A stretch of 64,000 nucleotides of DNA from a virus. The stretch's first letter is position 1. The number at the start of each line of letters is the position of its first letter. Both the position numbers and the translations under genes were made by a program. Positions 1 through 44,758 of the stretch are shown piece after piece. The stretch lies in the IMG/VR virus record IMGVR_UViG_3300032265_003945, positions 14,265-78,264 of that record; one strand, given 5' to 3'. The notes under the pieces were generated by a model. The model searched no databases. It was not told where the DNA came from and saw nothing but the letters and a program-made list of their open reading frames with translations.

Positions 1-1452
1 ATAGCTAAAATTAATTAATGCAGAGTTGTCTCTTAAATTACCTTTTGGTAAAGAAACTAAATCTTTAGTATCTGAATCATACACATAGTCTACTTCATCT
101 TGATAGGAAAATCTATAATTATAAGTGGCGACGGGAGGAGATGCCCCTGTTCCGGACTTAGAGCCGTCTGCGCCATAAACATACACTCTTCCAGTGGTAT
201 AGTCTACGCTATAAGCTCCAGGAAAAGATGGGAGAGCCTCTAATCTAAAGGGAGATTCATATAGGAAGGCGGGATGCTTAGCATTAACGTTAATGCTGTT
301 AGGATCGGTAAAAGTAACCCCGCCTAATTGAGGAACGTCATTATTTAAATCTACAATTGGGGCGTGCTTTAAATTAAAAATATTTATAATTGATGGAAGC
401 GTTTCTCTACTAGACGTTAGCACCTCTTCTACTCTTAAGGAATCAGAATAAATTATTTTACCAACATCTTTATATTGATAAGAGCACTCTATTCTGACAA
501 TAGCGTCTAATTTAAAAGAAGGATCTTGAAGTATCTGCTCGTTTAGCTTTATTTGATTATCTTCTAACAATAAATATTTAAATCCAAAATCCTGATCATA
601 TTTATTTTCTTTTATTTGATACCCAAGAGTCTGAATATCATATTCGTATATTGAAGGCAGGGAACTCAATATAAAAGTTAATTTTGTTAGCTTAATTACA
701 GGTGAAGAATTTAAATTTAAAATTAAACTATTGATGTTAAATTTGCCGTCCACATCTACAGAGTCTGGAGTTAAAAGCTCTCTAGTAACTTGAGTTGATT
801 GAAGCGTAAACGGATAGAATGGAAAAGTGTCTACGCTATAAAAACCAGAGACTTTATTTCCAGAAGGGGTAAGTCCAACCCTAATAATTTCATAGGCGCC
901 TTCTTGATCTAACCGATCAAAAGGTCCACCGCCTCTTGTTTTTTGCTCATCTTCAATAGTGTTACTTAAATAATTTTCATTTTTTACTTGACGCACATCA
1001 TATAAGGATTTAGATATGCTATTTACAAAAGAACCAATAACTTTGTAAACTGCAGTAGTTGGGTCTTCTACATTATAAATATTTTCTCTTAAGAAATTTA
1101 CTAAATAAGTTCTAATGATATTATCGGGCTCTTCTGGACCTAAGATTATCTTTAAGTTGCCTACGTTATCTTCCAGTAATTTAAACTCACCATTTAAAGA
1201 TTGAAATGGGTGATTAGAAGTTGAGCGAAACACGATATCATAAGCGGCATAAGGAGTCAAAGGCTGGCAATAAATCTTTAAGACATTATTGACCACTTGG
1301 ACTTTAAGAGCTTTAGAATCTGGAACATTTAAAGTTTGAGATAAAATTTGAATGTTGCTAACATCTAAATTATTAGTTAATTTTTCAGTAAAACTAGCTA
1401 TTAAATTAGAGCTATCAACAACTGTAACTGATTCTACTCTTAGGTTGCTCAT
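1..1452 (-). CDS. Partial baseplate wedge/tail structural protein (runs off the window; missing from the ORF track)
   Basis: ATG at 1452 overlaps the TGA of baseplate J (ATGA coupling). It translates MSNLRVESVTVVDSSNLIASF... and appears open toward position 1. It sits directly after baseplate J, the usual gpI/wedge slot. Confidence 0.7.
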   Translation of the reverse strand, partial: MSNLRVESVTVVDSSNLIASFTEKLTNNLDVSNIQILSQTLNVPDSKALKVQVVNNVLKIYCQPLTPYAAYDIVFRSTSNHPFQSLNGEFKLLEDNVGNLKIILGPEEPDNIIRTYLVNFLRENIYNVEDPTTAVYKVIGSFVNSISKSLYDVRQVKNENYLSNTIEDEQKTRGGGPFDRLDQEGAYEIIRVGLTPSGNKVSGFYSVDTFPFYPFTLQSTQVTRELLTPDSVDVDGKFNINSLILNLNSSPVIKLTKLTFILSSLPSIYEYDIQTLGYQIKENKYDQDFGFKYLLLEDNQIKLNEQILQDPSFKLDAIVRIECSYQYKDVGKIIYSDSLRVEEVLTSSRETLPSIINIFNLKHAPIVDLNNDVPQLGGVTFTDPNSINVNAKHPAFLYESPFRLEALPSFPGAYSVDYTTGRVYVYGADGSKSGTGASPPVATYNYRFSYQDEVDYVYDSDTKDLVSLPKGNLRDNSALINFSY

Positions 1453-4400
1453 CTTGTCTCAATATTCACTATAACGTTGTTTGCCACAAAGTATTCGTTC
1501 TTTTGAGCCGTTAAGCTAAGAACTTGACCTGGGACCCCTGTTTTATTAAAATAAATTATTCTTGATCTATCTACGCCATTAATAGAGTAAGAAGAATTTA
1601 CCAAATCCGATCCATCAATTATTCCTCCTAAAGAATTTAAATTAATAGAAGAGGTTAATATGTTTCTGACATTTTGAGCAACTATAGATGAACTGTTAGT
1701 AAAGATAGAGCTAACCACTATATTCATAGTTACATCTACAAGTATTGCGATTGCCTCTTTTGCAATAACATCTGCATTTATCGGTCTGTTATTTTCTATA
1801 TTAAAAGTGGCATCCGTAATTGTTTGATTATAATTATAAGTTATAGTGATTCTTTCATTTGTCTTTGGCGCAGTGTAATCGTAGAATACTTTGTATCTAG
1901 AGCCAAGAGGGGGTTGATTTATTGTATTTAAATTTAAAACGGAAGATGCGGTTGATTTAAACCCGCTACTCACATAGACTTTATCAATTAATAAGAATTT
2001 TTTACCCGTATATAATAAACCAGGAGCAGTATAGTTTAATGTTTCAGAGTCCGCAGAATTAACTACACAAATAGTGGCTCGCATCTTATCTCCAATTTTT
2101 GGAAGATAAGGGTTAGTCGAAGTATCTAGCATATTCGTGCTAGTCGATGGCAAAATCACACTAAATCTATCTAAAAGAGGGTTTTCGATTAACTCTCCTA
2201 TATAGTAAGAGTTATCTCTTATTTTTGAGTTAATTAAATCATAATTAACAATAACATTAGTAACTTCATCTAGGTTTCCTGCAGTTTGAACTTTTTCTAG
2301 CTTAACTATTCTAGCCAATTTAAGAGAAGAAGGTATAGCAGATGTAGAAGATAAACTTAACCCTTTAACAACTGCTTCTAGTAAATTGACCTCTAGCCCG
2401 GACGCAGTTGAGGTAAAGATTACATCTTTTATTTTAAAAATAGTTTTTCCTGTAATGGCAATCGAGCCATTAGATACGTTTTGATCGAAAATTAAAGAAG
2501 AAATGTTTGTTGGAGAGGTTCTTAAATTATTATAATTATAATAATTTATAAAAACTTTATCAAATAGTTTAGGATTGCCAAAAGATGATAGAATTAATTT
2601 ATTATTTGCAAAATTTATCGTGCCAGATCCGTTCCACACTTCTTGATTATCTGAGATCCTAGTAATAGAAATTTGAGATTTACTAATATTTTCTAGGGAA
2701 ATAGTCGCTGTAAATTGCTGCAAACTAGAATTAAAATTAATTATATCAAATATACCATTGTTATTAAAATTATACCCATCATAAATTTTTAATTTATAAT
2801 TAGATATGGCAGTAATATAATTAAGATTCATTGTCGGGCTAGTAACTAAGATCTGTTGAGGGTTTGACGGATCTTTTTGCAAATACCCATCAAGAACTTC
2901 TCCGTAAACTATTTGGGAGGCGGGGTCTAATATTTCAAATCTTAATGGTCCGACATTATCTATAAAATTTAAAATATCAACATATAGTTTTTGATCAGCA
3001 TCAGATTTTACCTCTGATTGTTGTAATGCAATTACTTCATTAGAAAAACTAACTGGCTGATATCTCGTATTATCCTTGGAGTAGTAGAATGTAACTACTT
3101 GATCTTTTTCCAAAGGAGAATTGTAATTAGATAGTATTAACTGATAATTATTATTAGAATTATTAAAAGTTATAGTTCCTGGATGCATGCTATCCCAAAG
3201 AACAGCGCCATCACTAATTCTTATAATAGATAAGATGTCCGATGTGCCCAGGGTGAAGTTATTTGCATTAATGGATAATTCAATGTAAAGCTGATTGCTA
3301 ACATTTTTATTAATTAATAAGCTCTCTCTTATTAAATTATTAAATATATTGTTATTTATAAATCCCAGGTTATTTAAGTTAAATCCATTAGAGACTCTGC
3401 TCGCTGGGAGCAGGGTCGTTGCGGAAGAGTAGAGCGAAGGGACATTGGCTATGTAAGAAACATTTAAATAAATTTGAGAAGAGTCTGTTACGATATTGCT
3501 TGCCGGTATATTAATTGTACTAGAATTAAAGCTGCCATTTATATTATCTACATAAAAAGTATTTTTACTATCAAAAATAATAGAGACTTTTTGACCACTT
3601 ACTGCGGTAGTGTCTGCCGGTAGAATTATATTTGCGCCATAGACAACTTTAATGCCTATGACTGATGTGCTGGCTGTAAAAGATCCGTTATTTTCAGCCG
3701 TATTATATAGTTCAACAAAAGTATTCTTTAAATAAATATTTTGTATTGATTGAACTGGAACTGGTAAATTTAATAATTGAACGGATTTTCTCCCGGCGTA
3801 TATCCCAGAGGTTACATCCGAGACAATACCGTCTTTTTGTTCAAAAGTATTGCAAGATATTACTGAGCTTATTGGGTGAGATACGGATCCCGTAAATATA
3901 TTTGCCGTAGCGTCTTTGATAAATAATGCTTTTTCGTCTTTTATTTCTGAGCAATAACCCCAGTCAACATTATCAATTGAAGGACGTAAATTATCATTTA
4001 AATATTTTCCATCATAATCCGAATATTGATCATAATCAAATATCCAAGTATAATCTACCTGAAGGACATCAGTGGCAACCGGTAAAGTATTACCAGAAAT
4101 TTTTATTCTTCCAGTTGTATTGACGCTTCCGGTTCCGTCTACATTTTGATTTACTATGAAATATCTTTCCCCGGTATTAACATTAAATACTCTAGTTACA
4201 TTTGTTAAGGGATAGTGAAATAATTGAATAATTGATCTGTCGCTAGTAATAACGCTATTCTCATTAACAATAGATATATTTTGCTGAATATTTGGAATGT
4301 TCAGCACATCAGTGTATGACAATGGATCTTGTCCATTAAATTTATTTTTAATTAAGTCCTGGGAGAAGGCAGATATTTTATTTGATGTCCATTTAAACTT

Positions 4401-5552
4401 ATCAAATCCCCAGGGAGATCCTGCATACACTCCCGTGTCTTTTACTAGCTCATAATTTCCGGAAACTCTTCCGAGAGAATCGACTGATTTGGGTATGAAA
4501 TTAGGTCCGCTCAGAGAACCTACTACGGTAACAAGAGAGTCGACTGGCTGAGACGGCAAGGTCCCATTCTTTATATTATCTACTCTTCTTTTGTTAACAG
4601 TCTTGTTTTCATCTCCGGATATTTGTCCCAAGACAATATCGTTTTTATCATTGGAAGAGTTATTCGTATTACTTTTATCTTGATAGATATAGGTATCTAT
4701 TGTTTGGAGTAAATTTTGCCCCAAAATAATAACATCAACTTTGCCGCCTTGTCCCTCGGAAATAATTGTTTTATTGCCGCTAGAGTCGGTCGAGACTACG
4801 GTCCCATCTCTTGTCATCAAGGGGTCACCCGGCTCGATAACCGTGGCATCTATAACATTGGTAGTGGCGAGGGCGGTGCTTCTATAACCAAGGGCAGTGC
4901 CAATGCTAGAGCCATTAAAAAGAGCTAGAATTCTATTTCTAAAAGCAGCGTCGTTTTCCTGATTCGAGCCGCCAGTAAAATTATTAGTATTTGTTGCCCC
5001 GGTGATTCCAGTGGTCGTAGATCTAGAGATATAATATTTGCCAATATTTCCAATGGCTCCAGGAGAAACACATTGAACTAAAACTTGTATCGCGTATTGA
5101 TCTTTAATACCTACGAAGTCTAAATCATTTTTGAATCTAGTAGCCGTAGATGCGTATGAGTTGGCTGAAGCTGGAATAATAGAGACTCCGGTAGTTACTT
5201 GAAAAGAAACTCCGCTACTGGTAATAACTAAATCTCCTGAATTAACTGCAAATGGAGCATCTACGGAATTAAAAGTAAGAAGGGCTACCCCATTAGCCGG
5301 TACAGCTTGTTTTCTAGACAACCCGAAATTTTTTGCTAGTTTGTCTAAATCTGCCCCAGCAGCCAATTTAATAGATTGTAAATCTGAAACGTTAGCAAGC
5401 TCATCATAAATTAAAGAAATTTGGCTAGCGGGGGCATCAATAAATAAATCTCTGGCAACAGTTCCAGGTTTAGTATCTAGATCTGGCTGAACCAGCTTAA
5501 AATAATCAATTAAGCCTAAGATAATATCATTTACATTTCTTATTGTTACCAT
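1449..5552 (-). CDS. Baseplate J-like wedge protein (gp6/gpJ family) with large internal insertion
   Basis: N-terminal DTKPGTVARDLF, 'GADLDKLAKNFGLSRKQAVPANGVALLT', 'GAIGNI' and 'FTGGSNQENDAAFRNRI' are baseplate-J hallmarks. It follows a gp25-like gene. Confidence 0.9.
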   Translation of the reverse strand: MVTIRNVNDIILGLIDYFKLVQPDLDTKPGTVARDLFIDAPASQISLIYDELANVSDLQSIKLAAGADLDKLAKNFGLSRKQAVPANGVALLTFNSVDAPFAVNSGDLVITSSGVSFQVTTGVSIIPASANSYASTATRFKNDLDFVGIKDQYAIQVLVQCVSPGAIGNIGKYYISRSTTTGITGATNTNNFTGGSNQENDAAFRNRILALFNGSSIGTALGYRSTALATTNVIDATVIEPGDPLMTRDGTVVSTDSSGNKTIISEGQGGKVDVIILGQNLLQTIDTYIYQDKSNTNNSSNDKNDIVLGQISGDENKTVNKRRVDNIKNGTLPSQPVDSLVTVVGSLSGPNFIPKSVDSLGRVSGNYELVKDTGVYAGSPWGFDKFKWTSNKISAFSQDLIKNKFNGQDPLSYTDVLNIPNIQQNISIVNENSVITSDRSIIQLFHYPLTNVTRVFNVNTGERYFIVNQNVDGTGSVNTTGRIKISGNTLPVATDVLQVDYTWIFDYDQYSDYDGKYLNDNLRPSIDNVDWGYCSEIKDEKALFIKDATANIFTGSVSHPISSVISCNTFEQKDGIVSDVTSGIYAGRKSVQLLNLPVPVQSIQNIYLKNTFVELYNTAENNGSFTASTSVIGIKVVYGANIILPADTTAVSGQKVSIIFDSKNTFYVDNINGSFNSSTINIPASNIVTDSSQIYLNVSYIANVPSLYSSATTLLPASRVSNGFNLNNLGFINNNIFNNLIRESLLINKNVSNQLYIELSINANNFTLGTSDILSIIRISDGAVLWDSMHPGTITFNNSNNNYQLILSNYNSPLEKDQVVTFYYSKDNTRYQPVSFSNEVIALQQSEVKSDADQKLYVDILNFIDNVGPLRFEILDPASQIVYGEVLDGYLQKDPSNPQQILVTSPTMNLNYITAISNYKLKIYDGYNFNNNGIFDIINFNSSLQQFTATISLENISKSQISITRISDNQEVWNGSGTINFANNKLILSSFGNPKLFDKVFINYYNYNNLRTSPTNISSLIFDQNVSNGSIAITGKTIFKIKDVIFTSTASGLEVNLLEAVVKGLSLSSTSAIPSSLKLARIVKLEKVQTAGNLDEVTNVIVNYDLINSKIRDNSYYIGELIENPLLDRFSVILPSTSTNMLDTSTNPYLPKIGDKMRATICVVNSADSETLNYTAPGLLYTGKKFLLIDKVYVSSGFKSTASSVLNLNTINQPPLGSRYKVFYDYTAPKTNERITITYNYNQTITDATFNIENNRPINADVIAKEAIAILVDVTMNIVVSSIFTNSSSIVAQNVRNILTSSINLNSLGGIIDGSDLVNSSYSINGVDRSRIIYFNKTGVPGQVLSLTAQKNEYFVANNVIVNIETR

Positions 5553-6046: not shown

Positions 6047-7729
6047 TCAAGAGGATGCCGATTTTTTAAGGTTCAGATAGATGGCATCACATATAGAATA
6101 TAAATATTTTACTAAAACTGAAAATCTAGATAGAGCTTCTTTAATTCCAATTCTTTCGGGAAGAGGGGTCCTTAAATTAAAAATTTTATTTTGCATTCTA
6201 GCATAGGCGGTATCATCAAAGAAAGAAATTAAAACCTGCTCATCTATTAAATAAAGTGCTGAAGTAATTACTAAAACATCGCATAATCCAAGACCACTAA
6301 ATTCTCCCATTATATATTCTATATACTTAAGGGCGTTGTTGGTATAAGAAAATGCATTGGACCTTGCTTTATTGAGTTGCTCCAAGTTTTTTTGATCTAA
6401 GGTAGAATCTATCGGTGGTCCATTGATAAAATCAGTAATCGCTCCCAGAGCGCTTTGTAATTGAGCTAAGAAAGGGTTTTCAGATAAACTAGAAGTTTTT
6501 ATAATTTTGTTAAAGAGAATATCTATTTGATTTGTAGCATTTTTTGCCGTTAAATACACTATTTCAATTTCTCTTTTATCTTTATTATTAGGATCTGATG
6601 AGAGTATTTTTCTTAAGTTGCATCCATACTCTGGTCCAGATTGACTCGGTACGGGTATTAAATTATAATTTCTTTGATTTTCATTAATTACATCTACGTT
6701 TTTTTTAAGCTCTGCCATCATTTTTTTAGCAAGTCCTATGAAACTAGCATAATAAACCGATGTATTTCCTGATGCATTTGTATTTGTATAGATTTTATTT
6801 AAATCTGAGCTATCTAATGAGATAGATCCTGTACTGGTCACCTGCTTAATGTAATCGATCTGGCTTTTTTGATAATCACTTAATTGCTCTTTTTGATTAT
6901 TTGAAGAAAGTCTATCAATACATATTTGTTGCAAGCCAGCCGCAGGATATTGGATTTTAGTATCAGGAGTTTTACCATCAAATATAAAAAAGGGAACGTT
7001 AATATGATTGCTATCTCCCGCTGCAAAAGATGCTCGAGGATCAACTACAAATGGCATAATGAAATGGTATCTTTCGTTTGCATTTTTACCGAACCACTTA
7101 ATATAAGGCGAAAGATCGTCAAGAGCGGTACGATTAAATAAATTAACATACGTCATCATATCTTTGCCATCCACGGATTCTGTAGAGACATTATATTTAC
7201 AATCCTTAGATTCTATTTCTAAGGGATTTTTTTCTGGATTATTCATGCAACTATCAAATTTTCTTGGATTTTTTGTAACTAGTGCTAAAACGCTCGCCCC
7301 AATACTTTCATTCCTAGAAAAAATAGATAATATTTGATTTAAATATAAATTTCTATCATTAGATGTTATGTAGCATTTTGTTTTAGTAAAATTATTTGAT
7401 ATTTTTATTTTATTTTCAATATTATCGGTATTAGAGTCGTACCCGGGATTAAAGAAATTATCATTATCAATTACCGGCATCCCTAATATTCTGTAGAAAG
7501 CGTGACACCTAGATTCTTTAAAAGCATAAGATGAGTCATCGTTGAAGACCAATACGGGAGGAGGATCTCCTTTAGTTACTTCTGGACTATCAATTGTGTA
7601 AATATTATTTTCATTTATAATTCCAGAAATATAATTATTTCCACGGTACCCATCAATATGCTTAATCCATTTAGAATACAGGTCATCTAGATCTATAGTG
7701 TAATTTGCGTTATCTCGGTAAAACGGCAT
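6047..7729 (-). CDS. Hypothetical virion/baseplate-region protein
   Basis: 560-aa ORF translationally coupled (TGATG) to the upstream gene within the baseplate operon; no motif recognised. Confidence 0.55.
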   Translation of the reverse strand: MPFYRDNANYTIDLDDLYSKWIKHIDGYRGNNYISGIINENNIYTIDSPEVTKGDPPPVLVFNDDSSYAFKESRCHAFYRILGMPVIDNDNFFNPGYDSNTDNIENKIKISNNFTKTKCYITSNDRNLYLNQILSIFSRNESIGASVLALVTKNPRKFDSCMNNPEKNPLEIESKDCKYNVSTESVDGKDMMTYVNLFNRTALDDLSPYIKWFGKNANERYHFIMPFVVDPRASFAAGDSNHINVPFFIFDGKTPDTKIQYPAAGLQQICIDRLSSNNQKEQLSDYQKSQIDYIKQVTSTGSISLDSSDLNKIYTNTNASGNTSVYYASFIGLAKKMMAELKKNVDVINENQRNYNLIPVPSQSGPEYGCNLRKILSSDPNNKDKREIEIVYLTAKNATNQIDILFNKIIKTSSLSENPFLAQLQSALGAITDFINGPPIDSTLDQKNLEQLNKARSNAFSYTNNALKYIEYIMGEFSGLGLCDVLVITSALYLIDEQVLISFFDDTAYARMQNKIFNLRTPLPERIGIKEALSRFSVLVKYLYSICDAIYLNLKKSASS

Positions 7730-12094: not shown

Positions 12095-12095
12095 T

Positions 12096-22629: not shown

Positions 22630-22632
22630 AAC

Positions 22633-22665
22633 AAATAAAAATGGCGGGCATTCACCCGCCATTTT
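22633..22665 (-). terminator. Intrinsic terminator after tail sheath
   Basis: Stem-loop aaaatggcggg-cattca-cccgccatttt with a U-tract on the minus strand. Confidence 0.8.
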
Positions 22666-29590: not shown

Positions 29591-32500
29591 TTAACTAGCA
29601 GATCCATCGTTAACATAAACGTCAATATATTGAGCAGTGTTATTATCAATAATCATACTTCCAGTTGTACTGGGCGTTCCTATAGGAGAGTTTCCATAAT
29701 TATCTAATGTTAGGATGGCGTCGCAGGTGTTACCTTCAATTAATATATTTCCTCCATCTAATGATGGAGAAGAATAGGCGCTAATATAAGAAAAATTATT
29801 ATTAGCTACAACAATATTTTCTGCGGTAAATCCAGATTTATTATTTGTACCCGCCATAATAAAACCATTATAATTATAAGCGACATTGTTTTTAATAATT
29901 ATATTGGAGAACTGATTGATTTTTGTTTGATCAGATTCTCCATAATTTATGAAAGCAACCGCCGCATAAAATGTGTTAACTGGAGAAGTGCCTCCAATAA
30001 ATCTGCACTTGTCAATTACAACAAAATCAATGATATTTGGAGCGTTTGTACTTGAAGGTGCGGTAAAGCAAACGAGTGGAGGAAGTTGGTAGTCTTGGTT
30101 TTTATTGTTCCCACCATCTCTACAATATTCTGACTGCCCATTTTGAGGAAAGCTATTTTGAGCTAAGGTGCAATTTGTTATTTTAACATTGTTAATGCTG
30201 CCATTGGAAACTATCGCCCCGCCTCCAATGAATCTTATTTTATCATCTTTATTAAAGTAACCTGCGGCAAAAAGAGGGGGAGTATAATTAACAAATGTAT
30301 TATCTATAATAATATGATCTGCTTGAGAATTTTTGTATCCTCCCCTGGGGTTTAATAGGATTCCTATTTTTGATTGGATAGAGTTAAACTTAGAATTAGT
30401 TATTGTATTTTCATAACTTTCTATAATTTCTCCTCCAGGAATATCATGACTATCGTCTCCCAAGACTAACCCATAAGCGTTAGTTACAATAGAGTTAACA
30501 TTAAAGTCATTAATTATATTTCTACTTCCATAAACTCTAATTGCGGATCCCTCAGGAGAGCTACAAATGATGTTATTAATATTAAATTTATTAATAACAT
30601 TATCACTTCCTATTTGAATAAAGTACTCAAATCCCTGATTAGAATTCTGATAAGCAGAGGAGGGCGAGAATGCATGAAAGAAACTGCTTGCTCCAAATAA
30701 GGTATTTTCAATTATATTTTTATTTCTTAAAGTAAATACTGTTTGATGGCAGTTAACATCTGTGGCAAAAGTGCAGTTAATTAATTTATTATCGTCTTGA
30801 AGAACGAACCCTAACCCATTATTAGATTTCACGGATCCAAATCCGCAACTTTCCAATACGTTATTATTATATCCTAATAATAAAGTATTGGAATTATCTT
30901 CTAATATAGCAAAAGAGCATTCAATAAATTTATTATAAGATTGAATACCTATTAGCGTATTATTACTTGTTGTTGGTGAGTTCTTTATTTCTTCAAAAAA
31001 GCACTTTGAAAAATTATTAAAATCTATAATATAGAAAAAATTAATTCTGGAAAATATACAATTATTAAAATAATTACCACTATTAATTTGTAAAATCATC
31101 GAAGAGACAAGATCAGTAGAATCAAATTTAAAATTTACATTTTCAAATGTACAGCTTGAATTATTTATTTGCAATATTTGACTATTTTCTAAAAATTTAA
31201 AATTTAAATCTTTAAAAGTAATATTAGATCCGAGCTGAAGTACTGGAGTTGTTCCCATAACAAATCCAGCTTCACTTCCTTCTCCTTGGAATACTGCGGG
31301 TAAATTAATTTGAGAAAAATCAAGCGTGCCAGAAGTATTAATATTTCCTTTTATAGTAACATGATTGGAAATTTTACCATAATAATTAATCCAATTTTTA
31401 ACCGCTTCAAAACTATGGAAGTAAGAAACGATATTGTTTTCAGCAGAAGTATCCGCCCAAGTAAAAGTATTATTTAAAGGTTCGCTATTAATGAATTTAC
31501 GGACATCACTTAAAGAGATGCTATTGTATGTAACTCCATTAATTCCCGAGTTATAGTACCCATCAACTTCTAAAACATATAATGGAGTTAAGTCTTTTCT
31601 ATTGTTAATTAGATCCTTGAAAAAGACACCATTAACGGAATATGAATTCGCTAATCCGTTACTAACGGAAACATCGTAAACTTTAATGTCTCTGGCTGCA
31701 CTTGGTGCTCCGGATTGTGAAGCTCCGTCCAACAGTGCTATGAATTGATATTCATAATTATCATTAGCGCATAGGGCCCAGAGCATATTATAGCTGTTGG
31801 CTCCAAAAATTTCTTTCACCGAGGGAACTTGTACTGAGGTATTGTTTAGTTGAACTAGTTTTCCGTTTACTAGAGAGATTCCTCCCTCTAGGAAATTAAC
31901 ACTTCCCGAGGATAGGGAAACATCTGTATCAAACCCTCTCACTACGCCATTGACATGAATTAATCTTTCAGGTGCAGAAATATAATTTAAAGCAGAAGTA
32001 GATAGGTCTTTTTCAGAGATATTTCCAAACTGCCTTAAATCAAGAATATGATCTACTATGTTGGTTGCGCCATTTAATTGCGCAGAAGCCAGTAACAACA
32101 CTTCGTCGTCCAAGGCTATTGTTGGGAATAATTGAATTGAGATATATTTATTTGAAATGTCTGAAACATTGACATTAATGTCAAAAATAAAATCAATATA
32201 GTCTATCCCTGTTTCATCATAGAAGCGAGTGACTTCGCCTTTGCGACCACTAACAAGAGGTCCTAAATTAGAGTCGCTTCCTGGCAAGCCATCTCTATTT
32301 AATAATCTGCCAGAAAATGTATTGTCATGTTGGCTAAAATTATCAATTAATAAAGTTATTTTGTTAACTGTTCCATAAGAGTATCCTCTTAATTTAGGAG
32401 AGACTCTCACTATATTAATTTTAGATAGCTCTGCGTTTGAATATAATGGAACGTTGCTGCCAACCGTGAAAACAGGGTCAGTAAGATTCATTCTTGCTCT

Positions 32501-34932: not shown

Positions 34933-35298
34933 TTATTGATTATTTTGCTGAGGATCTTCTTTTTTATTTTTTGGGATCTGTGCCACAATCATAGATTTAG
35001 CTACTCTATAAACTAACCCAGAAAGCATGCCTGCGACAAGTCCAAAGAATACTCTCCCACTTAGGGTAGAGACTACTTCTGGAAAAGGATATTTGCTAAT
35101 TAATCCAGCAACAACGCCGCCAAGAATTACTGGTAAAATAGGCATTATTAAGTCCCCCCATAATAATTCTAATTTTTTTAAAGAATAATAATTAATTATA
35201 AAATATCCAATTTTTCTAACCACAAAAGTAATTGCCGCAATTCCTAGACATAACATTACGAATTGCCAACTTAGAAGTGTTTGAAGAGCTGTGTCCAT
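34933..35298 (-). CDS. Putative holin
   Basis: 121 aa with three hydrophobic helices and a charged C-terminal tail, within the structural operon. Confidence 0.6.
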   Translation of the reverse strand: MDTALQTLLSWQFVMLCLGIAAITFVVRKIGYFIINYYSLKKLELLWGDLIMPILPVILGGVVAGLISKYPFPEVVSTLSGRVFFGLVAGMLSGLVYRVAKSMIVAQIPKNKKEDPQQNNQ

Positions 35299-35312: not shown

Positions 35313-37457
35313 TTAGCTTAGTAGTATTGAAAGAGTTACGTTTGTGGGAAATGCAGAGGTTGAGCCAATAAAAGAAACAATAACCGATAAATTATCTCCA
35401 GCGTTAACGGGGAAAGAGTGCACAACATCAGAACCAGAAGTGGCAGTTGTTAACGTAGTGGTTGTTAAAGTTGTAGCTACCCCGTTTTTATAAACTGTAT
35501 AGATCACTCTGTCTGCTCCGGTTCCAGCAGTTTGATTTAAGTAAAGCTTGCTCACTGTTCCGCTTACCGGTACGGTTATTTTCTTTTCCGCTATATTATT
35601 GCCTCCATATGGTCCACCAGGAGGTAAATAAGTTGAAGAAGGATTATATGTAATGGAAGACGCTCCAAAAAGAAATACTGTCCCTATTCCAGAAGAGCCA
35701 GCAGCTCCAGTCGCCCCAGTGGCACCATTTGCGCCTGCCGCACCTGCACCAGTAGCGCCGGTAGCCCCTATAGTCCCTGCAATACCCGCAATACCCGCAA
35801 CGCTAAAAGTCCAAGGAGCGGATATGTTTCCATAAGTTCCAGAAGATGAGCTAGTATTATCAACAAATACTGTTAAAGTATTACCGCTAAAAGAAGTAAT
35901 TACACCTTCCATATAGGTAGGACCAATTGCAGCTCTAACTCTTGTTCCAGCAACAAAAGAAGTTTGAGTGTCTAGTAAATTAGTTGTCCAAGTTCTATAA
36001 TAAGGCAGTCCACCTGTAGCTAAAGAAATGGCAGTAGGAGAATTCAATCCTCGATAACCTACCCCATCCGATCCAGAAGTTCCTGTTGCCCCAGTTGCCC
36101 CTGTGGTGCCTCCGCCAGGTCCGGTAGCTCCGGTAGCGCCAGCTGCTCCGGTTGCCCCTGTAGCCCCCGAAGAAAAGTGAGCTAAGCTCCATTCTCCACT
36201 TCTGAAAACTAAAGTATCTCCCTCATTTGGAGTTCTGACTAAATAAGAGAATGGATTGTCGTACAAACCAACAACAGTTTGTAAGGTTGAGCTACCAGAA
36301 AGATTGTTTCCTGGGGTAAAATAATTTCCTACCGGTGCAAGATCCCATTGGTTGGATCTAAACACCAAAGTATCTCCATTCATAGGGTGTTCAGCTGTAG
36401 GAGAAATTGGTTGATTATAAATTCCGACAACCGTAGGTCTATCGCAGGCGCCTCCCAAATCGTTAGTTAAAGTGATTGCGCCTTTATTGTAACCATCGGC
36501 GCAAGGTAAATCGGATGGTTGCCAGAAACTACCATCAAGAGGATCTTCTACGTATCTTAAAAATTGTCCATTAAATGGAATTTGGTCTCTTAATGGAATT
36601 AACCGTAATCCAACAACTTTGGCTCCTCCTGAATTTCCTGGAGACAAGTCTTCGGTTAAGGTAATGGCGCCACGAGTAGTACTAGTTGCTAGCGGTATTG
36701 GTCTCGATCTCCAAGAACCGCCTTCAAACAATAAAGCGTCGAATTCGCTAGGGCAATCCGGAGCAATTGGTTTGCACTGTATGCCAACTACACAAATACA
36801 GTCTGCGGACAAACCAAGATCGCACCCTAATTTAATTACTCCGTAATTATTGGCGCTGGCAATAGGCAAATTGCTATTAGTCCACTCAGATCCGTCCCAT
36901 TTTAAAAATTGATTTGAAGTTACTGGTTCGTTAAATTTTAGTGAATATCCCTGTAACTTATTTACCTGCAAATAATCGGCAAGTCCACCAATGTCTCCAT
37001 TGTTCGCCAATCCTGCTATTTTTACTGTTCCAAAAACTTGATCGCTTGCTGGCGGAACTTGAGTGCTTGGAGGGGACGGAGTCCAATAACCGTTATTATC
37101 ATCCCAAGTTAAAACATTACCATCGCTTGGGGCTGCGTTTAAAATAGAGTAGCCTTGTATTTTGGTAACTCTTGGAGAGTCTGCAGTTGATGCCGGTCCC
37201 GCTAAATCGCCCGCTAACTTTAAAATTCCTTTAATGGTCTGAGTAGCATCTGGTATTGTTGGGGGAAAAGCAATATCAGCTATTTTTTCAATAGCTGATT
37301 GCAAATTAGAGGCGACATATCCATCAATATTGACCTGGGGCGAAAGGAGTAGACCATCCGCATGATGATTAAAATCGTACCCATCTATGTGCTTTTGAAA
37401 ATCATAACGATCGGTAGCTAACCGACCTACACCGGGCGTATATTTAAGATTAGTCAT
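35313..37457 (-). CDS. Tail fibre with five 'A-x5-GxxxL..DLG' repeats and collagen-like GAT repeats
   Basis: PDATQTIKGILKLAGDL, PPASDQVFGTVKI, PIASANNYGVIKLGCDL, PLATSTTRGAITLTEDL, PCADGYNKGAITLTNDL; two GATGAT blocks; C-terminal beta-sandwich. Confidence 0.8.
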   Translation of the reverse strand: MTNLKYTPGVGRLATDRYDFQKHIDGYDFNHHADGLLLSPQVNIDGYVASNLQSAIEKIADIAFPPTIPDATQTIKGILKLAGDLAGPASTADSPRVTKIQGYSILNAAPSDGNVLTWDDNNGYWTPSPPSTQVPPASDQVFGTVKIAGLANNGDIGGLADYLQVNKLQGYSLKFNEPVTSNQFLKWDGSEWTNSNLPIASANNYGVIKLGCDLGLSADCICVVGIQCKPIAPDCPSEFDALLFEGGSWRSRPIPLATSTTRGAITLTEDLSPGNSGGAKVVGLRLIPLRDQIPFNGQFLRYVEDPLDGSFWQPSDLPCADGYNKGAITLTNDLGGACDRPTVVGIYNQPISPTAEHPMNGDTLVFRSNQWDLAPVGNYFTPGNNLSGSSTLQTVVGLYDNPFSYLVRTPNEGDTLVFRSGEWSLAHFSSGATGATGAAGATGATGPGGGTTGATGATGTSGSDGVGYRGLNSPTAISLATGGLPYYRTWTTNLLDTQTSFVAGTRVRAAIGPTYMEGVITSFSGNTLTVFVDNTSSSSGTYGNISAPWTFSVAGIAGIAGTIGATGATGAGAAGANGATGATGAAGSSGIGTVFLFGASSITYNPSSTYLPPGGPYGGNNIAEKKITVPVSGTVSKLYLNQTAGTGADRVIYTVYKNGVATTLTTTTLTTATSGSDVVHSFPVNAGDNLSVIVSFIGSTSAFPTNVTLSILLS

Positions 37458-37485: not shown

Positions 37486-39075
37486 CTAAATTAATATTTC
37501 ATGAGTATGCCCTAACGCTTCGATAACAACTAGCTTATTAGCCGAAGCATCCCAAACAACCTGATGATTGTGTGCTTGAACAATGCTGCTTAGCTGAGAA
37601 AATTTATCTGGGCTTTGTTCATTGGTAACAATTTCGTGTTTATGAGGTCCAATGCCAAAAGCATTGGTAATGGAAGTATTTACCTTTGCTGGCAAAGTAG
37701 CTGTATTTCTAAAAGCATTAATTTGATAAGCAATGTCAAATTTACGAATTCTTTGCACTCTCATTCTTTGAGCACTCTCTAGCTGTGTAACAGTTCTGTT
37801 TCTATTAACCGATAAAACTTCATATCTGAATTCTTCATTGCCGTCTTGATCAAATCGAATTAAAATATCCCTATCTTTAACAGTGGGGACGGTTAATGTC
37901 CAGCATTCGGTAATCAACTCAGATTCTAACCCAGCTTCTTGCATTTTTAAATCTTCATCAGCGGGGCTGAAGCGAACCATAATTCTACCATCGGAGCGAC
38001 GAGGGTTGAAATATTGTTCGTAGCCCATCACAAATTTAGTCCCCAGGCAGCGAACGCACCTGTCATCAGGGTACTCGCTTGTCGGCAATACACAGCTACA
38101 AACAATCCCGGTTCTTTGCCTTTTAATTAAAACAACCGGCTCACCAGTAATGCTAAGCAATATCTCCTGTCTTTGCAAAATTCTTTCTTGCAAAGGAATT
38201 CCTCTTAGTACTCTCCCTACCCCATCATAACCATCGGCACAAAACTGCTCTCCGCTCAAATAACTTCCAACGCACTCTCCTGAAATTAACTTAACTGGAT
38301 CGGTTCTATGCCACCCATCGTAATCATAAGAATTAAAGTCGACATTGTAAGCATCGCTCCCACTCAAATCAGTGGTTAACAAATCTTTAGTGACTTGTTT
38401 GTATCCATCTGCAAGAGTAAAGGCATTATGATCCAAATCAAATCTACTTTGACAAGGGTAAATTCTATCAAACGAAGAATATTCTTTTCCGGCAAAGAAA
38501 GTTACTGCAGGATTCCAATAACCATATCCATCATATCCGTCTAAATTATGAATTCTTGCTTCGGTATTCCAGTACCCTCTTTGGCTCGCTGAAGTTAATA
38601 TCAAATTGTTATTTATTCGATCTACTGAAAGATATTGAATTAGTTCAATGCCAATTTTAATTACACCGTAATCTGGAAAGTCAGTGCTATCTATTAAAGG
38701 AATTAACAATTGAGAGCTTGTAATATCTTCTCTTAGCAAGGTTTCTGGATAAACTTTTAAATTATTAAAAGAACTGGGTAGCTTGGACAAATCCGTTACA
38801 ACCGGATTGTACTCTACTGGGCGAACAGAGAAATAATAAAGCTGACCTGGAGTAAGATCACTTATATCGGCGCTCAAGTAACCGTCATAAGAAATAAATT
38901 TAACACCTTCAGAAAAAACATTTTCTCGCACAGTGCTGTAATATAAATTATATGCAACGCTGTAACCATCAAAATTAGAGAAAGCTTTAAACCACTTGGT
39001 AATGACAGAATAACCATCCCCGTTGGAAATGGTAGCGTCTATCCCGACATCAGTGTTTATCGCATAATAAATCAT
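37486..39075 (-). CDS. Neck/head-closure protein with FN3-like N-domain, Cys4 Zn site and C-terminal HxH repeats
   Basis: 'DLTPGQLYYFSVRP' FN3-like; CSC...CVRCLGT; 'WTLTVPTVKDRDILI..RYEV'; HKHEI/HNHQV/HTHEI. Confidence 0.6.
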   Translation of the reverse strand: MIYYAINTDVGIDATISNGDGYSVITKWFKAFSNFDGYSVAYNLYYSTVRENVFSEGVKFISYDGYLSADISDLTPGQLYYFSVRPVEYNPVVTDLSKLPSSFNNLKVYPETLLREDITSSQLLIPLIDSTDFPDYGVIKIGIELIQYLSVDRINNNLILTSASQRGYWNTEARIHNLDGYDGYGYWNPAVTFFAGKEYSSFDRIYPCQSRFDLDHNAFTLADGYKQVTKDLLTTDLSGSDAYNVDFNSYDYDGWHRTDPVKLISGECVGSYLSGEQFCADGYDGVGRVLRGIPLQERILQRQEILLSITGEPVVLIKRQRTGIVCSCVLPTSEYPDDRCVRCLGTKFVMGYEQYFNPRRSDGRIMVRFSPADEDLKMQEAGLESELITECWTLTVPTVKDRDILIRFDQDGNEEFRYEVLSVNRNRTVTQLESAQRMRVQRIRKFDIAYQINAFRNTATLPAKVNTSITNAFGIGPHKHEIVTNEQSPDKFSQLSSIVQAHNHQVVWDASANKLVVIEALGHTHEILI

Positions 39076-39186: not shown

Positions 39187-39708
39187 TTAGACTTTGCTCA
39201 TGAGAACATCTTTCTTCTCTTTTCTTTCTTTTTTACTATCTATGTCATGATGGTCTAACAAACCCTCTACGTACTTCTCTGCTTGATTGTCTCCAAATTC
39301 TCTAGAAATATATTCTATTTGATTTTGAAAACCCTCTTGTTCATCTGGGTTGTCTAGGTATTCCCCTTCGTCTGCGCCTTTCGTTGGCTTGTTTTTAAAA
39401 CATTGTTGCAGATAGTGGGAAACTTCATGAATTAAGTACCCGTAATCTTTAAAGAAATCTCCATCCGCCAATAATTTATAATTTAAAGTAATTATTCCGT
39501 GCGAAGTAGTGGCGGAAACTTCAATATCTCCAAATCTCATTGGGATTAAATCTAAAAAAGAAATATCAACGCCAAAGTCTTGAAAAACTTTTTTCATAAC
39601 TTCATCAGTTTTTAAAAACTTTTTAGCTCGATTAATTATATTTAAAAGAGATTTAGGAGACCTCTTTTTTATTTCTTCGATGGTATATTTCTTTTTACCC
39701 TGGATCAT
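39187..39708 (-). CDS. HExxH zinc metallopeptidase-like protein
   Basis: YLIHEVSHYLQQ plus downstream YLDNPDEQEGF (likely third ligand Glu). Confidence 0.7.
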   Translation of the reverse strand: MIQGKKKYTIEEIKKRSPKSLLNIINRAKKFLKTDEVMKKVFQDFGVDISFLDLIPMRFGDIEVSATTSHGIITLNYKLLADGDFFKDYGYLIHEVSHYLQQCFKNKPTKGADEGEYLDNPDEQEGFQNQIEYISREFGDNQAEKYVEGLLDHHDIDSKKERKEKKDVLMSKV

Positions 39709-39738: not shown

Positions 39739-40112
39739 ATGAAAAATACTTATTATGTAGCTTTATCAAAAATTGATGGCAAAGGAGTTTTTGCCGACCA
39801 ATATTTTGTAACCGGAGATTATATTGGAAAATGTTTAATTTCTATTTTAAAACAAGATAAAAAAGAAGATAAAGAGTATGGTTATAGTGATGTTTCCGAG
39901 AGATTAGGAACTTTGGTGCAAAAAAAACTAAATTAGAAAAATATTTAAACCACAGCCCTCAACCCAATGCAGAATTATTTTTTCATCATGGACTGGAGTT
40001 ACATTTAAAAGCAATTGCTGATATTGCTAAAGATGAAGAAATTACAGTAAATTATGGAGATGCTTTTCCTAAGATAGATCAGTTGCAGATAAAGTTTATT
40101 AAATTAATCTAA
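39739..40112 (+). pseudogene. SET-domain protein split by a frameshift in an A8 run
   Basis: Frame 0 gives SKIDGKGVFA (SET motif I). The -1 frame from 39927 gives TKLEKYLNHSPQPNA...AIADIAKDEEITVNYG (NHS and EEITxxY motifs), ending at TAA 40112. Confidence 0.8.
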
Positions 40113-40799
40113 TAAAAATCCTGGATGGATAACTACAGTACATTCTGATTGCTCGGTTCCTCCTTCAGATCCAAGAACAAAAGCTTTATTAGTAGGAACT
40201 TCAAATATTTTATCATTATTATCTACTATAGAAGAAAATCCTAAGCCACCACCACCACCACCACCCCAATTTCCAAATCTTGTTTCACAATGACCGGTAT
40301 CTAAATTAATTATAGCTACATATCCTCTTTTGTAATCATAGATGGATTGATTTTGAGGATTAACCACATTAGATTTAATTAATCTTACAGTTCTTTTTTT
40401 ATATTTAATATTTTCTTTTAAAGCTTTTTGTAATTTTTTAGATAAACTAGATGTTGCGACTCGGTCGCCCGACCATTTATTAAATTTAGAGTCAGCGGGA
40501 GCTTCTTTTAAACTTTCAAAAAAATCATCTTCTGTTTTATCTACTTTTGTTTTATCTACTACAACATCTTCATGGAATTTTTTAAGTACTTCCCAGGCTT
40601 CATTTATATCAACGATATTTTGCGATCCGCCTAAATCTGAGCGATCTGGATGAAATTGAAAAGATTTTTTCTTATAAGCTCTTTTTATTTCTTCTAGACT
40701 AGCATGAAGAGAGACTTCTAAAATTTGAGCAGCCCTTTCAGGACTCATAGAAGCTAATTTAAAAAATAAATTTATTTTATCAAATAGTTTTTTAGACAT
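40104..40799 (-). CDS. J-domain (DnaJ-like) protein with KxA leader
   Basis: ILEVSLHASLEEIKRAYKKKSFQFHPDR..INEAWEVL, with an intact HPD motif. Confidence 0.85.
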   Translation of the reverse strand: MSKKLFDKINLFFKLASMSPERAAQILEVSLHASLEEIKRAYKKKSFQFHPDRSDLGGSQNIVDINEAWEVLKKFHEDVVVDKTKVDKTEDDFFESLKEAPADSKFNKWSGDRVATSSLSKKLQKALKENIKYKKRTVRLIKSNVVNPQNQSIYDYKRGYVAIINLDTGHCETRFGNWGGGGGGGLGFSSIVDNNDKIFEVPTNKAFVLGSEGGTEQSECTVVIHPGFLLD

Positions 40800-41302: not shown

Positions 41303-41425
41303 CTGTTACTTTCTCTTCGGGCAAAGAAAGATATTGCAGAAGGAGAAGAGATTACGGTAGAATATGGAGACGCTTTTGAAAAAATAGATCAGCTGCAAAG
41401 AGATCTTGTTGCAAAAATAAAATAA
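41303..41425 (+). pseudogene. 3' remnant of a second SET-domain gene
   Basis: LLLSLRAKKDIAEGEEITVEYGDAFEKIDQLQ* is paralogous to KAIADIAKDEEITVNYGDAFPKIDQLQ at about 40.0 kb; no 5' half is present. Confidence 0.8.
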
Positions 41426-41965: not shown

Positions 41966-41981
41966 GACTATATTCAATTTT

Positions 41982-42683: not shown

Positions 42684-42691
42684 CGCTGAGG

Positions 42692-43594
42692 TCAAAGTAT
42701 TTTTCGTTCTTTAAGATGCCTAAGCCTTCGTACCGCAGGGTTGAAACCACTGCTCATGCTCCAGACACCTAAGCCCTTTGGTTGAGGTCTTAGGCTATTT
42801 TTTATATATTTAAGTTTATCCCAATAATTGGTTAGCAGAGTTCCATATTGACTGTTCAACAAATCGCTGACGCCAGGCAACTGGAATGAAATCCCGTTAT
42901 CGGTGACGTTAATCTCGTTTCCTTTCTCGATTAACGCACGGCTCGCTAATGCATATAAAGTTGCCCCTTCGACCAATATTTCTCCAAATTGATCTATGAA
43001 CATATCGTCATCAAATTGAAAATAGGTAAAATAGGGAACTTGATTGAAGTCCCAGAGGGCTCCTGCTAACATGGTAACTAACTGGTCTACGGAAAAGATG
43101 TCGCAAGTAACGTAAACTGTATTTCCATATTTATCTGTGGTCTTGACTTTCCCCGAGCTATTTAATCTTCTTTTTAACAATCTAAGTAGTTTGTTAATAT
43201 TTTTAATGGCTATCTGAGAATAATCAAATTCGGGCGTATCACCCAAATGAGCATATCCATCGCTATTTATTGCAGGGACATCCGTAGCACTAACGATAAA
43301 AGAAAAATTAGTCTCTACTCTAAAGCCATTAACAAAACCCACCCAAATATCGGAATAAACACCCAAGGGTCCATTGTAACCTACCGTATAAACAAAAGAA
43401 TACTTTCCCGTGTCCACTTTAGCCACACCAGCAGAAGTGGGTCCAAAAGACACTAATCCTGTCGGATCTACTACCGTGATAGTGGGAAAAATATCCGTAT
43501 CAATAGGGTTTCCTTGTGCGTCCTTAAATTGGACGGTTAAGTTAACTTGATCGTTTAAGTCAAGCATTTCCCCACGGGCTTTGATAGTTGCCAT
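42692..43594 (-). CDS. Head-tail adaptor/neck protein with N-terminal Ig-like (BppU-like) domain
   Basis: Start MATIK with AAGAGGA SD; 'VQFKDAQGNPID..GKYSFVYTV..GVYSDIW' Ig-like domain, then a helical connector-like domain (ALWDFNQVP; VTDNGISF). Confidence 0.6.
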   Translation of the reverse strand: MATIKARGEMLDLNDQVNLTVQFKDAQGNPIDTDIFPTITVVDPTGLVSFGPTSAGVAKVDTGKYSFVYTVGYNGPLGVYSDIWVGFVNGFRVETNFSFIVSATDVPAINSDGYAHLGDTPEFDYSQIAIKNINKLLRLLKRRLNSSGKVKTTDKYGNTVYVTCDIFSVDQLVTMLAGALWDFNQVPYFTYFQFDDDMFIDQFGEILVEGATLYALASRALIEKGNEINVTDNGISFQLPGVSDLLNSQYGTLLTNYWDKLKYIKNSLRPQPKGLGVWSMSSGFNPAVRRLRHLKERKIL

Positions 43595-43628
43595 GGATAA
43601 ATTCCTCTTTATTGATATATGTTTTTTT

Positions 43629-44435
43629 ATGCCTGCAAAAATAAGTGAAGATGTTTCTAAACAAATATGCAATTTATATTTATCCGGAGAAAAGGGAACT
43701 AATCTTAAAAAAATATTTAATTTAAATATTAAAACTATTTACAGTATTTTGTTTAGGAACGGAATTCAAATTAGGTCGCCGGAAGATTCTAAAAGAAAAT
43801 TTAATTTTGATCAAAATTATTTTGATCAAATTGATTGTCCCAGAAAAGCTTATTGGCTTGGCTTCATAGCCGGTGACGGCGGGATCGTAAGAAATTGTTT
43901 AAGATTTAACCTATCTAAACAAGATATTAATATTTTAAAACAGTTTAAAAAAGATTTAAAATCAGATCATAAAATAGAGCAATATTGCAATAATATTGTT
44001 AGTTTCACTTTAACTTCTAAAAAATTAAAAGAATCCTTAGCGCAATGGGAAATTTATCCCTCTAAATCTAAAATATTATCTCTTTGTTCAAAAATTCCAG
44101 ATCAATTTATTAATTATTATTTATTAGGGATTTTTGATGCAGATGGTTGCTTTAGCGTAGATAAGCGGCGAGGAATTAGATATTGCATGATCGGCTCCAC
44201 TATATCTATGTTGCAAATTCAAGAAATTTTAATTAAAAAATGTGGAGTAAATAGAGTAAAGCTTCACTCGCACCCAAGCGAAGGAATATCTCAACTTCAT
44301 TATTCTGGAAATCGTCAAGTTAAAAAAATTGTAGATTTTTTATATAAAAATCTAGATGTTTGCTTAGATAGAAAATTTAAAATCGCTTCTGATTTTTATT
44401 CTTTAGATCCCTTAAAAAATTACACTGCGCTATAA
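43629..44435 (+). CDS. LAGLIDADG homing endonuclease with N-terminal HTH
   Basis: KAYWLGFIAGDGGI and YLLGIFDADGCF motifs. Confidence 0.9.
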   Translation: MPAKISEDVSKQICNLYLSGEKGTNLKKIFNLNIKTIYSILFRNGIQIRSPEDSKRKFNFDQNYFDQIDCPRKAYWLGFIAGDGGIVRNCLRFNLSKQDINILKQFKKDLKSDHKIEQYCNNIVSFTLTSKKLKESLAQWEIYPSKSKILSLCSKIPDQFINYYLLGIFDADGCFSVDKRRGIRYCMIGSTISMLQIQEILIKKCGVNRVKLHSHPSEGISQLHYSGNRQVKKIVDFLYKNLDVCLDRKFKIASDFYSLDPLKNYTAL

Positions 44436-44758
44436 ATTCCATACGGAGCACTTACCACTAATTGATAAATAATTTCTTGCACGGCAAGAGTAAAAGGATC
44501 GATATAGGTGACGTCAACTAAGTACGAACCTACTGCAGAAGCTCCGGTGGGAATAGTAAAGTAGGAAACATACAGTCCTGTAGCTACTTGAACCATCGGG
44601 CCAGTGTAACCATCTATTAACTCTAAGGCAGGATTCCAGATATTAGCTACTCTCGGAAGCTCCGAACAATCCATGCGATAACCGTCTGGACCAGTCGTCT
44701 CTAATACGATAGAGGCTTTTTGTCCCGGAGTGTATTGTAAAATGTTCATGTCTACCAA
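44420..44758 (-). CDS. Small Ig-like virion protein
   Basis: 'TGLYVSYFTIPTGASAVGSYLVDV' resembles the Ig-like domain of 42692-43594; contains two DGY motifs. Confidence 0.55.
   Translation of the reverse strand: MVDMNILQYTPGQKASIVLETTGPDGYRMDCSELPRVANIWNPALELIDGYTGPMVQVATGLYVSYFTIPTGASAVGSYLVDVTYIDPFTLAVQEIIYQLVVSAPYGIYSAV

Follow-up and report, generated by a model that had tools for sequence, protein, structure and literature searches.

Three-residue sequons for protein glycosylation include N-X-S/T and the motif of the general O-glycosylation system of Bacteroidota, D-(S/T)-(A/I/L/V/M/T), and in these systems the glycan is transferred in the periplasm or lumen from a lipid carrier to Asn or to Ser/Thr. 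Phage tails assemble in the cytoplasm. Serine-rich repeat adhesins are glycosylated stepwise in the cytoplasm, beginning with a glycosyltransferase family 4 (GT4) initiator, GtfA/GtfB, and continuing with transferases such as GalT1. Here we describe the tripeptide Asp-Gly-Tyr (DGY), which the outward tail, neck and fibre proteins of a clade of huge phages carry at about ten times the chance level, and which looks like a previously undescribed tag read by something, most plausibly by the phage's own sugar-adding enzymes. The window analysed is 64 kb (64,000 nucleotides; positions 14,265 to 78,264 of IMG/VR record IMGVR_UViG_3300032265_003945) of a 78-kb viral contig. Three near-complete relatives in IMG/VR (92–97% complete by CheckV) span 361–406 kb, so the contig covers only part of the genome of a huge phage.

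DGY resembles the N-X-S/T and Bacteroidota motifs in being a strict, position-independent tripeptide of which the number rather than the exact place is maintained, and the Bacteroidota motif, like DGY, starts with Asp. Unlike those systems, these phages have no Wzy_C-type oligosaccharyltransferase (PF04932; no match in the three near-complete genomes). The proposed pathway shares with the adhesin system a GT4-family starter of cytoplasmic O-glycosylation and GT2-type extension, although the adhesin acceptors are Ser/Thr in long repeats and the likeness of the enzymes is at the family level. Tyrosine is an acceptor in bacterial surface (S-) layers: SpaA of Paenibacillus alvei, and Thermoanaerobacter, carry β-Glc or β-Gal on Tyr, added by co-secretional transfer through an O-oligosaccharyltransferase, no sequon being given (PMC2943079). 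Bacteria thus do make stable Tyr-linked glycans on surface-array proteins, but the Wzy_C-type enzyme of that route is the one that gave no match here. Nor did the three genomes give a match to GT8 (PF01501), which sets the phages apart from Tyr glycosylation of the glycogenin type.

Among phages, mycobacteriophage virions are glycosylated by phage-encoded glycosyltransferases, with the glycans reportedly at the C-termini of capsid and tail-tube subunits (Freeman et al. 2023, as summarised in PMC12619734). The present phages resemble this system in having glycosyltransferase genes beside virion structural genes and, as proposed here, in coating virion proteins with glycans in the cytoplasm. They differ from it in that the capsid protein and the candidate tube protein lack DGY, in that the candidate sites lie in internal loops of other proteins rather than at C-termini, and in that Tyr is the sole hydroxyl residue of the motif. 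Moraphages, a lineage of large phages from aquatic habitats, have four core orthogroups of glycosyltransferases, DnaJ/DnaK homologues and genomes of up to 307 kb, and were described with no mention of a DGY motif (PMC12619734). The clade studied here likewise consists of large uncultured phages with conserved glycosyltransferases, and the window contains a DnaJ-domain gene between the neck and connector genes (40104–40799, minus strand). The two lineages may be related, the likeness being one of description.

The 45 non-overlapping open reading frames (ORFs) translated from the window (20.4 k residues) contain 30 DGY, against 3.4 expected from the composition of each protein (Poisson p 1.2e-18). 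The sequence-only reading that preceded this analysis had counted about 29 in structural ORFs by eye and roughly expected 2–3; all of its per-protein counts were reproduced, and the excess that it reported survives correction for composition, as 5,000 within-protein shuffles gave a mean of 3.4 (s.d. 1.8) and a maximum of 11. A first-order Markov null that keeps the counts of the dipeptides DG and GY gives 9.2 expected (p 5e-8). The look-elsewhere effect is covered because DGY ranks first among all 8,000 tripeptides in the window and the runner-up has a p value of only ∼1e-5. Most sites lie within 1449–44758, the range given earlier, but those in a 472-residue ORF at the contig end and in an HNH endonuclease, which has one DGY, lie outside it.

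The excess is a property of the peptide. The degenerate DNA motif GAYGGNTAY has 31 matches in the window, 30 of which are in-frame DGY codons, and codon usage at 396 DGY sites from 27 genomes equals the background of other Asp, Gly and Tyr codons in the same genes. A motif acting at the DNA level was accordingly rejected, the excess of TAC and the lack of GGC in the window having vanished over the 396 sites. Mutagenesis by a diversity-generating retroelement was rejected on codons as well (GGA and GGG, which do not fit NNY, make up 17 of the 30 Gly codons), and a paralogous repeat domain was rejected because the carriers have no BLAST similarity to each other and the sequence logo of the flanks is flat over 187 sites, save for a mild deficit of Pro at +1. 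The earlier view that DGY is a short linear motif with unrelated flanks thus holds. That the excess is an artefact of composition, paralogous repeats, a nucleotide motif or ORF calling is therefore extremely improbable: D, G and Y are each fairly frequent in fibre proteins and DG and GY are mildly over-represented, but the composition, Markov and shuffle nulls all fall short of the observed count, the long open frames give no hint of a wrong frame or genetic code, and the excess is reproduced in about 30 independent contigs.

Specificity was assessed on the window and three relatives, in which DGY alone is raised while NGY, EGY, SGY, DGF, DGW and YGD are at background, and on 76 k residues of fibre protein from 24 further related contigs. 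The latter contain 267 DGY against 15.7 expected (p 2e-221), compared with 27 against 20.8 for NGY, 6 against 9.6 for EGY and 36 against 24.9 for SGY. D-x-Y is raised only when x is G. Of the residues that follow D-G, Y alone reaches a high level; F (14 observed, 16.5 expected), W (1, 2.1) and H (1, 2.8) do not, and K, Q, I and V are mildly over-represented (two- to three-fold). The carboxylate, the glycine and the phenolic hydroxyl are each needed, as in the sequons of enzymes. DGY is thus a strict short motif that is independent of its flanks and enriched in its presumed target proteins, as a sequon would be.

The excess is found throughout the clade, in phage genomes of ∼360–406 kb, and only in neck, sheath, baseplate and fibre proteins and a small immunoglobulin (Ig)-like protein. 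Within 10 kb on either side of the neck gene, loci L001 to L006, from six relatives, have 11, 23, 12, 6, 26 and 18 DGY, against 1.5, 1.0, 1.1, 1.0, 1.3 and 1.2 expected, respectively. One relative of 383 kb shows the excess only at ∼180–270 kb, and its other 290 kb, which are non-structural, are at background. In a contig of a metagenome-assembled genome (MAG), G004, the excess ends exactly where the G+C content jumps from 0.39 to 0.58, that is, at the passage from phage to bacterial DNA. The tail regions of outgroup phages are at background (Eggerthella phage LE2-3, 2 DGY against 3.3 expected; Bacillus phage G, 3 against 2.2).

The same phages also provide an internal contrast. Between 5571 and 21947 on the minus strand lie eight DGY-free ORFs of 143, 695, 1667, 305, 744, 89, 208 and 208 residues, which gene order and weak or partial family matches suggest to be candidates for a sheath initiator or baseplate wedge, tube initiator, tube, tape measure and hub, and two further DGY-free inner-tail candidates of 121 and 173 residues lie at 34933–35298 and 39187–39708. 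Pooled over three genomes, these ten proteins have no DGY in 12.9 k residues (1.9 expected), whereas the carriers have 92 in 32.8 k residues, and at the carrier rate the probability of finding none is 2e-16. A 755-residue ORF within the same span has no DGY here and two in each orthologue. The major capsid protein (337 residues, 56506–57519, minus strand; phrog_2522, E 1.4e-77) has none. The earlier statement that the motif is missing from the capsid is therefore correct; for tube, tape measure, hub and spike, ten DGY-free ORFs do stand at the right places in the gene order, with identities that depend on that order and on weak or partial matches. Its description of the carriers as outer virion proteins applies to the neck, sheath, baseplate, fibres and tail exterior, and fails for the capsid shell.

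Turnover of the sites was followed in global alignments of the window proteins with orthologues from three genomes. DGY of the window is retained at 28 of 68 aligned sites (41%), compared with 10.4% for all other tripeptides, and this conservation, which the sequence-only reading had asked about, is accompanied by frequent gain: 36 DGY of the orthologues align to other residues of the window proteins and 27 fall in insertions. Where a site is lost, its counterpart is in most cases a small polar tripeptide such as DGT, DGS, NGS or QGT, which indicates exposed loop positions rather than buried Tyr. The number of sites is thus kept while their positions turn over, as is expected of a sequon.

The neck protein (529 residues, 37486–39075, minus strand) has seven DGY, at residues 20, 36, 64, 179, 182, 223 and 281, and consists of N-terminal FN3-like domains, a neck/stopper-like core and a C-terminal metal-site-like region. 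Its structural model (predicted local distance difference test, pLDDT, 85.5) is matched by Foldseek to the neck proteins of phage 812, Pam3 and phiCD508. Across 104 homologues the DGY at 223 is invariant, those at 20, 179, 182 and 281 are kept in 72–86%, and those at 36 and 64 are recent gains; the alternatives at 179 are SGF, NGF and AGF. According to DSSP, residues 20, 64 and 223 of the model lie in inter-strand loops, 36 directly precedes a strand, 179 and 182 lie in a long loop and 281 in a disordered stretch. The free-standing Ig-like β-sandwich protein (112 residues, 109 from Met; 44420–44758, minus strand) has two DGY, both in inter-strand loops of a confident model (pLDDT 90.8, predicted template modelling (TM) score 0.80), and Foldseek assigns it to Ig domains with a probability of 1.0, at TM scores of only ∼0.45–0.55. 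It probably lies on the virion surface, judging by its position beside the neck and connector genes. In its family, 23 of 24 homologues have 1–5 DGY within one loop, the first, of 12–39 residues, at non-homologous positions, and the loop lengthens as DGY units are gained. Both confident models therefore place the sites in loops, as had been expected of exposed turns, and we conclude that DGY is a selected three-residue linear motif in exposed loops of outward tail proteins.

The suggestion that glycosyltransferases be sought beyond the window proved fruitful. Directly after the two distal fibre genes, on the same strand and just outside the window, lie five genes (G000:C1:130-4619, L007) that encode a GT4 enzyme (Glycos_transf_1; G000:C1:3531-4619), a GT2 enzyme, an Fpg/Nei glycosylase, a 343-residue membrane-anchored protein and a second GT2 enzyme. 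This cassette is syntenic in three relatives (G002, G003 and G005). A scan for the GT4 enzyme gave 24 further viral contigs, and in all 24 it follows the same two fibres, among which up to 26 DGY per fibre are found. In these contigs the 10 kb upstream of GT4 together contain 255 DGY (15.3 expected) and those downstream 4 (∼10.5 expected, or 11.4 when slightly more ORFs are counted). The idea that co-expressed proteins which are not targets avoid DGY was considered and is not relied on, the evidence being mixed (4 against 11.4 after GT4, and 11 against ∼10 in the non-structural regions of G005). In L091, which is DGY-rich, a GT-B enzyme, a sugar 4,6-dehydratase, a DegT aminotransferase and a PglD-like acetyltransferase replace the GT2 genes, so GT4 is the constant element and the sugar-building cassette behind it is variable. 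A GT2 protein weakly matches GalT1 (5hea). The Fpg/Nei-family DNA glycosylase gene (L007:1967-2800, G000:C1) is retained by G005 and by several of the 24 contigs.

Other writers were sought and found wanting. The 343-residue protein is not supported as a fourth transferase: it combines a hydrophobic helix at the N-terminus with a coiled coil and a β-rich part, has no solved or named relatives, and is missing from several DGY-rich contigs. An MprF-like aminoacyl transferase was rejected as it has no orthologue in G003, G005 or G004; it is a 252-residue protein with an MprF C-terminal aminoacyl-tRNA transferase domain (PF09924, E 5e-13), encoded at 46183–46941 (plus strand) and not conserved in relatives. 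A TPST-type sulfotransferase (Sulfotransfer_3, PF13469) gave no match in G009–G011 or G005, and one sub-threshold match in G003, on another contig. The three near-complete genomes contain no Fic enzyme and no protein kinase above threshold, with sub-threshold Pkinase fragments in two of them; Tyr phosphorylation, which the sequence-only reading had offered as one possibility, thus finds no support. Glycosylation of hydroxymethylated DNA bases needs a ThyA-family hydroxymethylase (PF00303), and its presence in only one of these three genomes does not fit DNA bases as the target of the cassette.

Strict specificity that extends to the Tyr hydroxyl, restriction to outward proteins, and conservation combined with rapid gain in loops argue that DGY is a site read by something, and because the fibre-linked glycosyltransferases are the only conserved candidate readers, Tyr O-glycosylation is placed first. 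We put the probability that DGY is a Tyr O-glycosylation sequon at about 0.4. A cytoplasmic, phage-encoded glycosyltransferase would recognize the turn made by Asp-Gly and add a sugar to the hydroxyl of Tyr, and the best candidate for this writer is the GT4 enzyme, whose gene always follows the last fibre gene. Further enzymes of the cassette, which differ between lineages, would extend the sugar and leave the tail exterior covered in a glycan specific to the lineage. This complete scheme, in which virus-encoded cytoplasmic Tyr O-glycosylation with a strict D-G-Y sequon uses GT4 and a swappable cassette to coat the tail exterior, is put forward more tentatively still.

Alternatively, DGY could be a non-covalent binding unit, an Asp/Tyr turn for a ligand such as capsule or other glycans, a cation or a tail-decorating partner, present in many copies for avidity like the Tyr/Gly/Asp-rich loops of antibodies, with the glycosyltransferases as unrelated neighbours. 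The variable loops of Ig-like, FN3-bearing and fibre proteins are typical binding scaffolds, loop expansion raises the copy number, only outward parts are affected, and genes for lysis and repair are interspersed in the cassette, which may thus act elsewhere than on the virion. However, generic stickiness would allow YGD, GDY, NGY, DGF and DGW, all of which are at background, no conserved context makes a pocket around DGY, docking of a single partner would not need 8–26 sites per fibre, and no ligand or partner has been identified, so that we regard this explanation as doubtful, although a serious one. A purely structural role, in which Asp-Gly forms a type I' or Asx turn, Tyr packs on the neighbouring strand and the turn aids the folding or stability of long β-rich tail proteins with no reader, draws on the status of Asp-Gly as a classic tight-turn pair, on the location of sites between strands in both models, on the strong positional conservation of several neck sites and on the alternatives at neck residue 179, all of which keep an aromatic residue. 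Yet NGY, DGF and NGF, which would form the turn equally well, show no enrichment, and the excess is lacking from the β-rich inner tail, capsid and non-structural proteins of the same phages and from outgroup tails; the flanks have no hairpin pattern, lost sites become mostly small polar rather than hydrophobic, and DGY units pile up in tandem in variable loops. We consider such a role unlikely. Some other covalent chemistry is rated lower again, be it sulfation, phosphorylation or nucleotidylation of Tyr by an unrecognized phage or host enzyme, or spontaneous chemistry at Asp-Gly (succinimide and isoAsp formation, or cross-links) by which an ageing tail would stiffen. That Phe does not replace Tyr, and that Asp-Gly is strictly needed, would fit chemistry on the hydroxyl or on the Asp-Gly bond, and an unfamiliar enzyme could hide in genomes that are largely unannotated; but the near-complete genomes yielded none of the enzymes named above, a host enzyme fits poorly with relatives binned with MAGs of three different phyla, which suggest varied hosts insofar as binning, weak host evidence, can do so, and isoAsp chemistry leaves the requirement for Tyr unexplained.

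Among the possibilities raised at the outset, namely a modification sequon, a docking site for decoration proteins and a metal-binding turn, the sequon is thus the best supported, given the constant place of GT4 after the last fibre. Several points nevertheless weigh against Tyr O-glycosylation. Any attachment at all, Tyr as the acceptor and GT4 as the writer are matters that we infer, and the exposure of the Tyr side chains is deduced from DSSP strings and substitution patterns rather than from coordinates. The capsid shell, which is also an outer surface, has no DGY. The GT4 and GT2 proteins match generic enzymes only, none of them known to glycosylate tyrosine. The cassette is interleaved with the Fpg/Nei DNA glycosylase, the membrane-anchored protein and, in one lineage, an amidase endolysin, and hence is not a clean virion-glycosylation operon; its enzymes could act on the host envelope instead. 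The link between glycosyltransferases and motif is one of synteny within one clade and is phylogenetically non-independent, and a literature search found no publication of a DGY motif or sequon.

Nor does the clade offer a natural knockout. By profile search and tree, the neck family comprises clades with 0–1 DGY in the neck protein next to clades with 6–10. In the DGY-poor lineage the proximal tail is near background (3–4 DGY against ∼1.1), the distal fibres still have 8 against 1.4 expected, and a GT4 homologue (31% identity, E 8e-59) is present, after the last fibre and then behind the amidase endolysin; contigs G006 and G007 end before the cassette. DGY in this lineage is therefore reduced and redistributed rather than lost, and the association of cassette and motif is a property of a single clade. 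G004, at first sight a DGY-rich genome that lacks glycosyltransferases, is uninformative, as its phage piece is only 26 kb on bacterial DNA.

Should DGY prove to be a sequon, phages would have their first defined sequon, and glycosylation its first code directed at tyrosine, one that could be read straight from the genome sequences of hundreds of uncultured huge phages. It would mean that these phages remodel the chemistry of the whole tail surface, which bears on host range, adsorption to capsule or mucus and stability, and would represent a new way to tune adsorption or to evade recognition by host or environment, besides providing a compact pair of tag and enzyme for protein engineering. 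One or two enzymes and the 109-residue Ig-like protein would suffice to test the claim directly. Were nothing attached, the selection of a strict tripeptide for copy number on the tail exterior would still be an unexplained rule of virion design.

The carriers described next are all encoded on the minus strand. The large fibre-like protein (1763 residues, 29591–34882), for which a family search gave no match, has eight DGY at residues 85, 202, 287, 392, 395, 643, 747 and 1107, of which 392 and 395 form a DGYDGY tandem like that at 179 and 182 of the neck protein; its orthologues have eight (G003), six (G005) and three (G004), mostly at different positions. A collagen-like fibre protein (714 residues, 35313–37457), which matches tail-fibre PHROGs and contains a collagen repeat, has three (25, 45 and 321), compared with seven in its L005 orthologue. 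Both sites of the tail sheath (922 residues, 22681–25449; 145 and 413) are outside the conserved C-terminal sheath domain (745–919), and by analogy with known sheath architecture they would sit in an inserted, outward-facing part. The baseplate J-like wedge protein (1367 residues, 1449–5552) has two (888 and 925) in a long C-terminal extension past the J domain (4–292), and its G003 and G005 orthologues have two each. Single sites occur in a baseplate-region protein (560 residues, 6047–7729; residue 26), of which the G003 and G005 orthologues have none, in a structural-module protein (264 residues, 26139–26933; residue 122), where the site is retained in the orthologues from G003 and G005, and in a 547-residue protein (27936–29579; residue 403) with no orthologue found in either genome.

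A further single DGY, kept in relatives, is at residue 138 of a 326-residue protein (42692–43672), the 300-residue protein of the sequence-only reading when counted from its first Met, which weak family leads suggest is possibly a head–tail connector or adaptor. The 472-residue ORF at the contig end (533 residues to the window end, 62399–64000) has collagen-like repeats and one DGY (159), and its orthologue adjoins the neck module in G003. A distal fibre of 2367 residues, of which the N-terminal 484 are in the window (1–1452), has two DGY, both beyond the window. The last fibre (1312 residues, L007:4665-8603, G000:C1), also beyond it, contains a dockerin-type calcium-binding repeat (PF00404) and has no DGY here, compared with 3–5 in its orthologues. 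Residues ∼320–529 of the neck protein contain a conserved, zinc-ribbon-like CxC...CxxC motif and three invariant HxH, an arrangement as in metal-binding trimeric fibre tips and unusual in a neck protein.

The phage is recognizable as such from its sheath, baseplate-J, neck (by fold) and major capsid genes. An annotated phage collection contained no relative of the neck protein and no close phage, while more than 898 neck homologues were found in metagenomes. In L003 (IMGVR_UViG_3300033066_001289) the orthologues of the neck and glycosyltransferase genes are split over several reading frames and contain in-frame stops, which points to sequencing errors or to gene decay. IMG/VR labels one 361-kb relative (G010) a provirus. 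In the Terriglobia MAG contig G004:C50 (L020–L032), a 26-kb piece of related phage is joined, at ∼230 kb, to 230 kb of bacterial DNA with 58% G+C, either by chimeric assembly or as an integrated fragment.

The window is also rich in homing endonucleases, mobile elements and DNA methylases. Three paralogous genes of the endonuclease-VII/HTH homing-endonuclease-like type, 37–53% identical, lie between tail genes (22012–22662, 25543–26142 and 26941–27942, all on the minus strand), and a LAGLIDADG gene (55368–56384) and an HNH gene (57701–58852) lie further on. A TnpB protein of 419 residues (IS605 OrfB/Cas12f-like TNB domain; 49835–51668, plus strand), with a 193-residue ORF directly upstream, marks a mobile element. 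Two DNA methylase-like genes (45119–46180, plus strand; 53447–55378, minus strand) are 39% identical over 350 residues, and a tRNA-Ser gene (anticodon GGA) is at 47403–47492 (minus strand). The connector-like, 472-residue and neck genes are adjacent in relatives, but in the window ∼17 kb (∼45000–62400) with methylase and endonuclease genes, mobile elements and the capsid gene come between them, a layout that suggests that the head–neck region has been rearranged or invaded.

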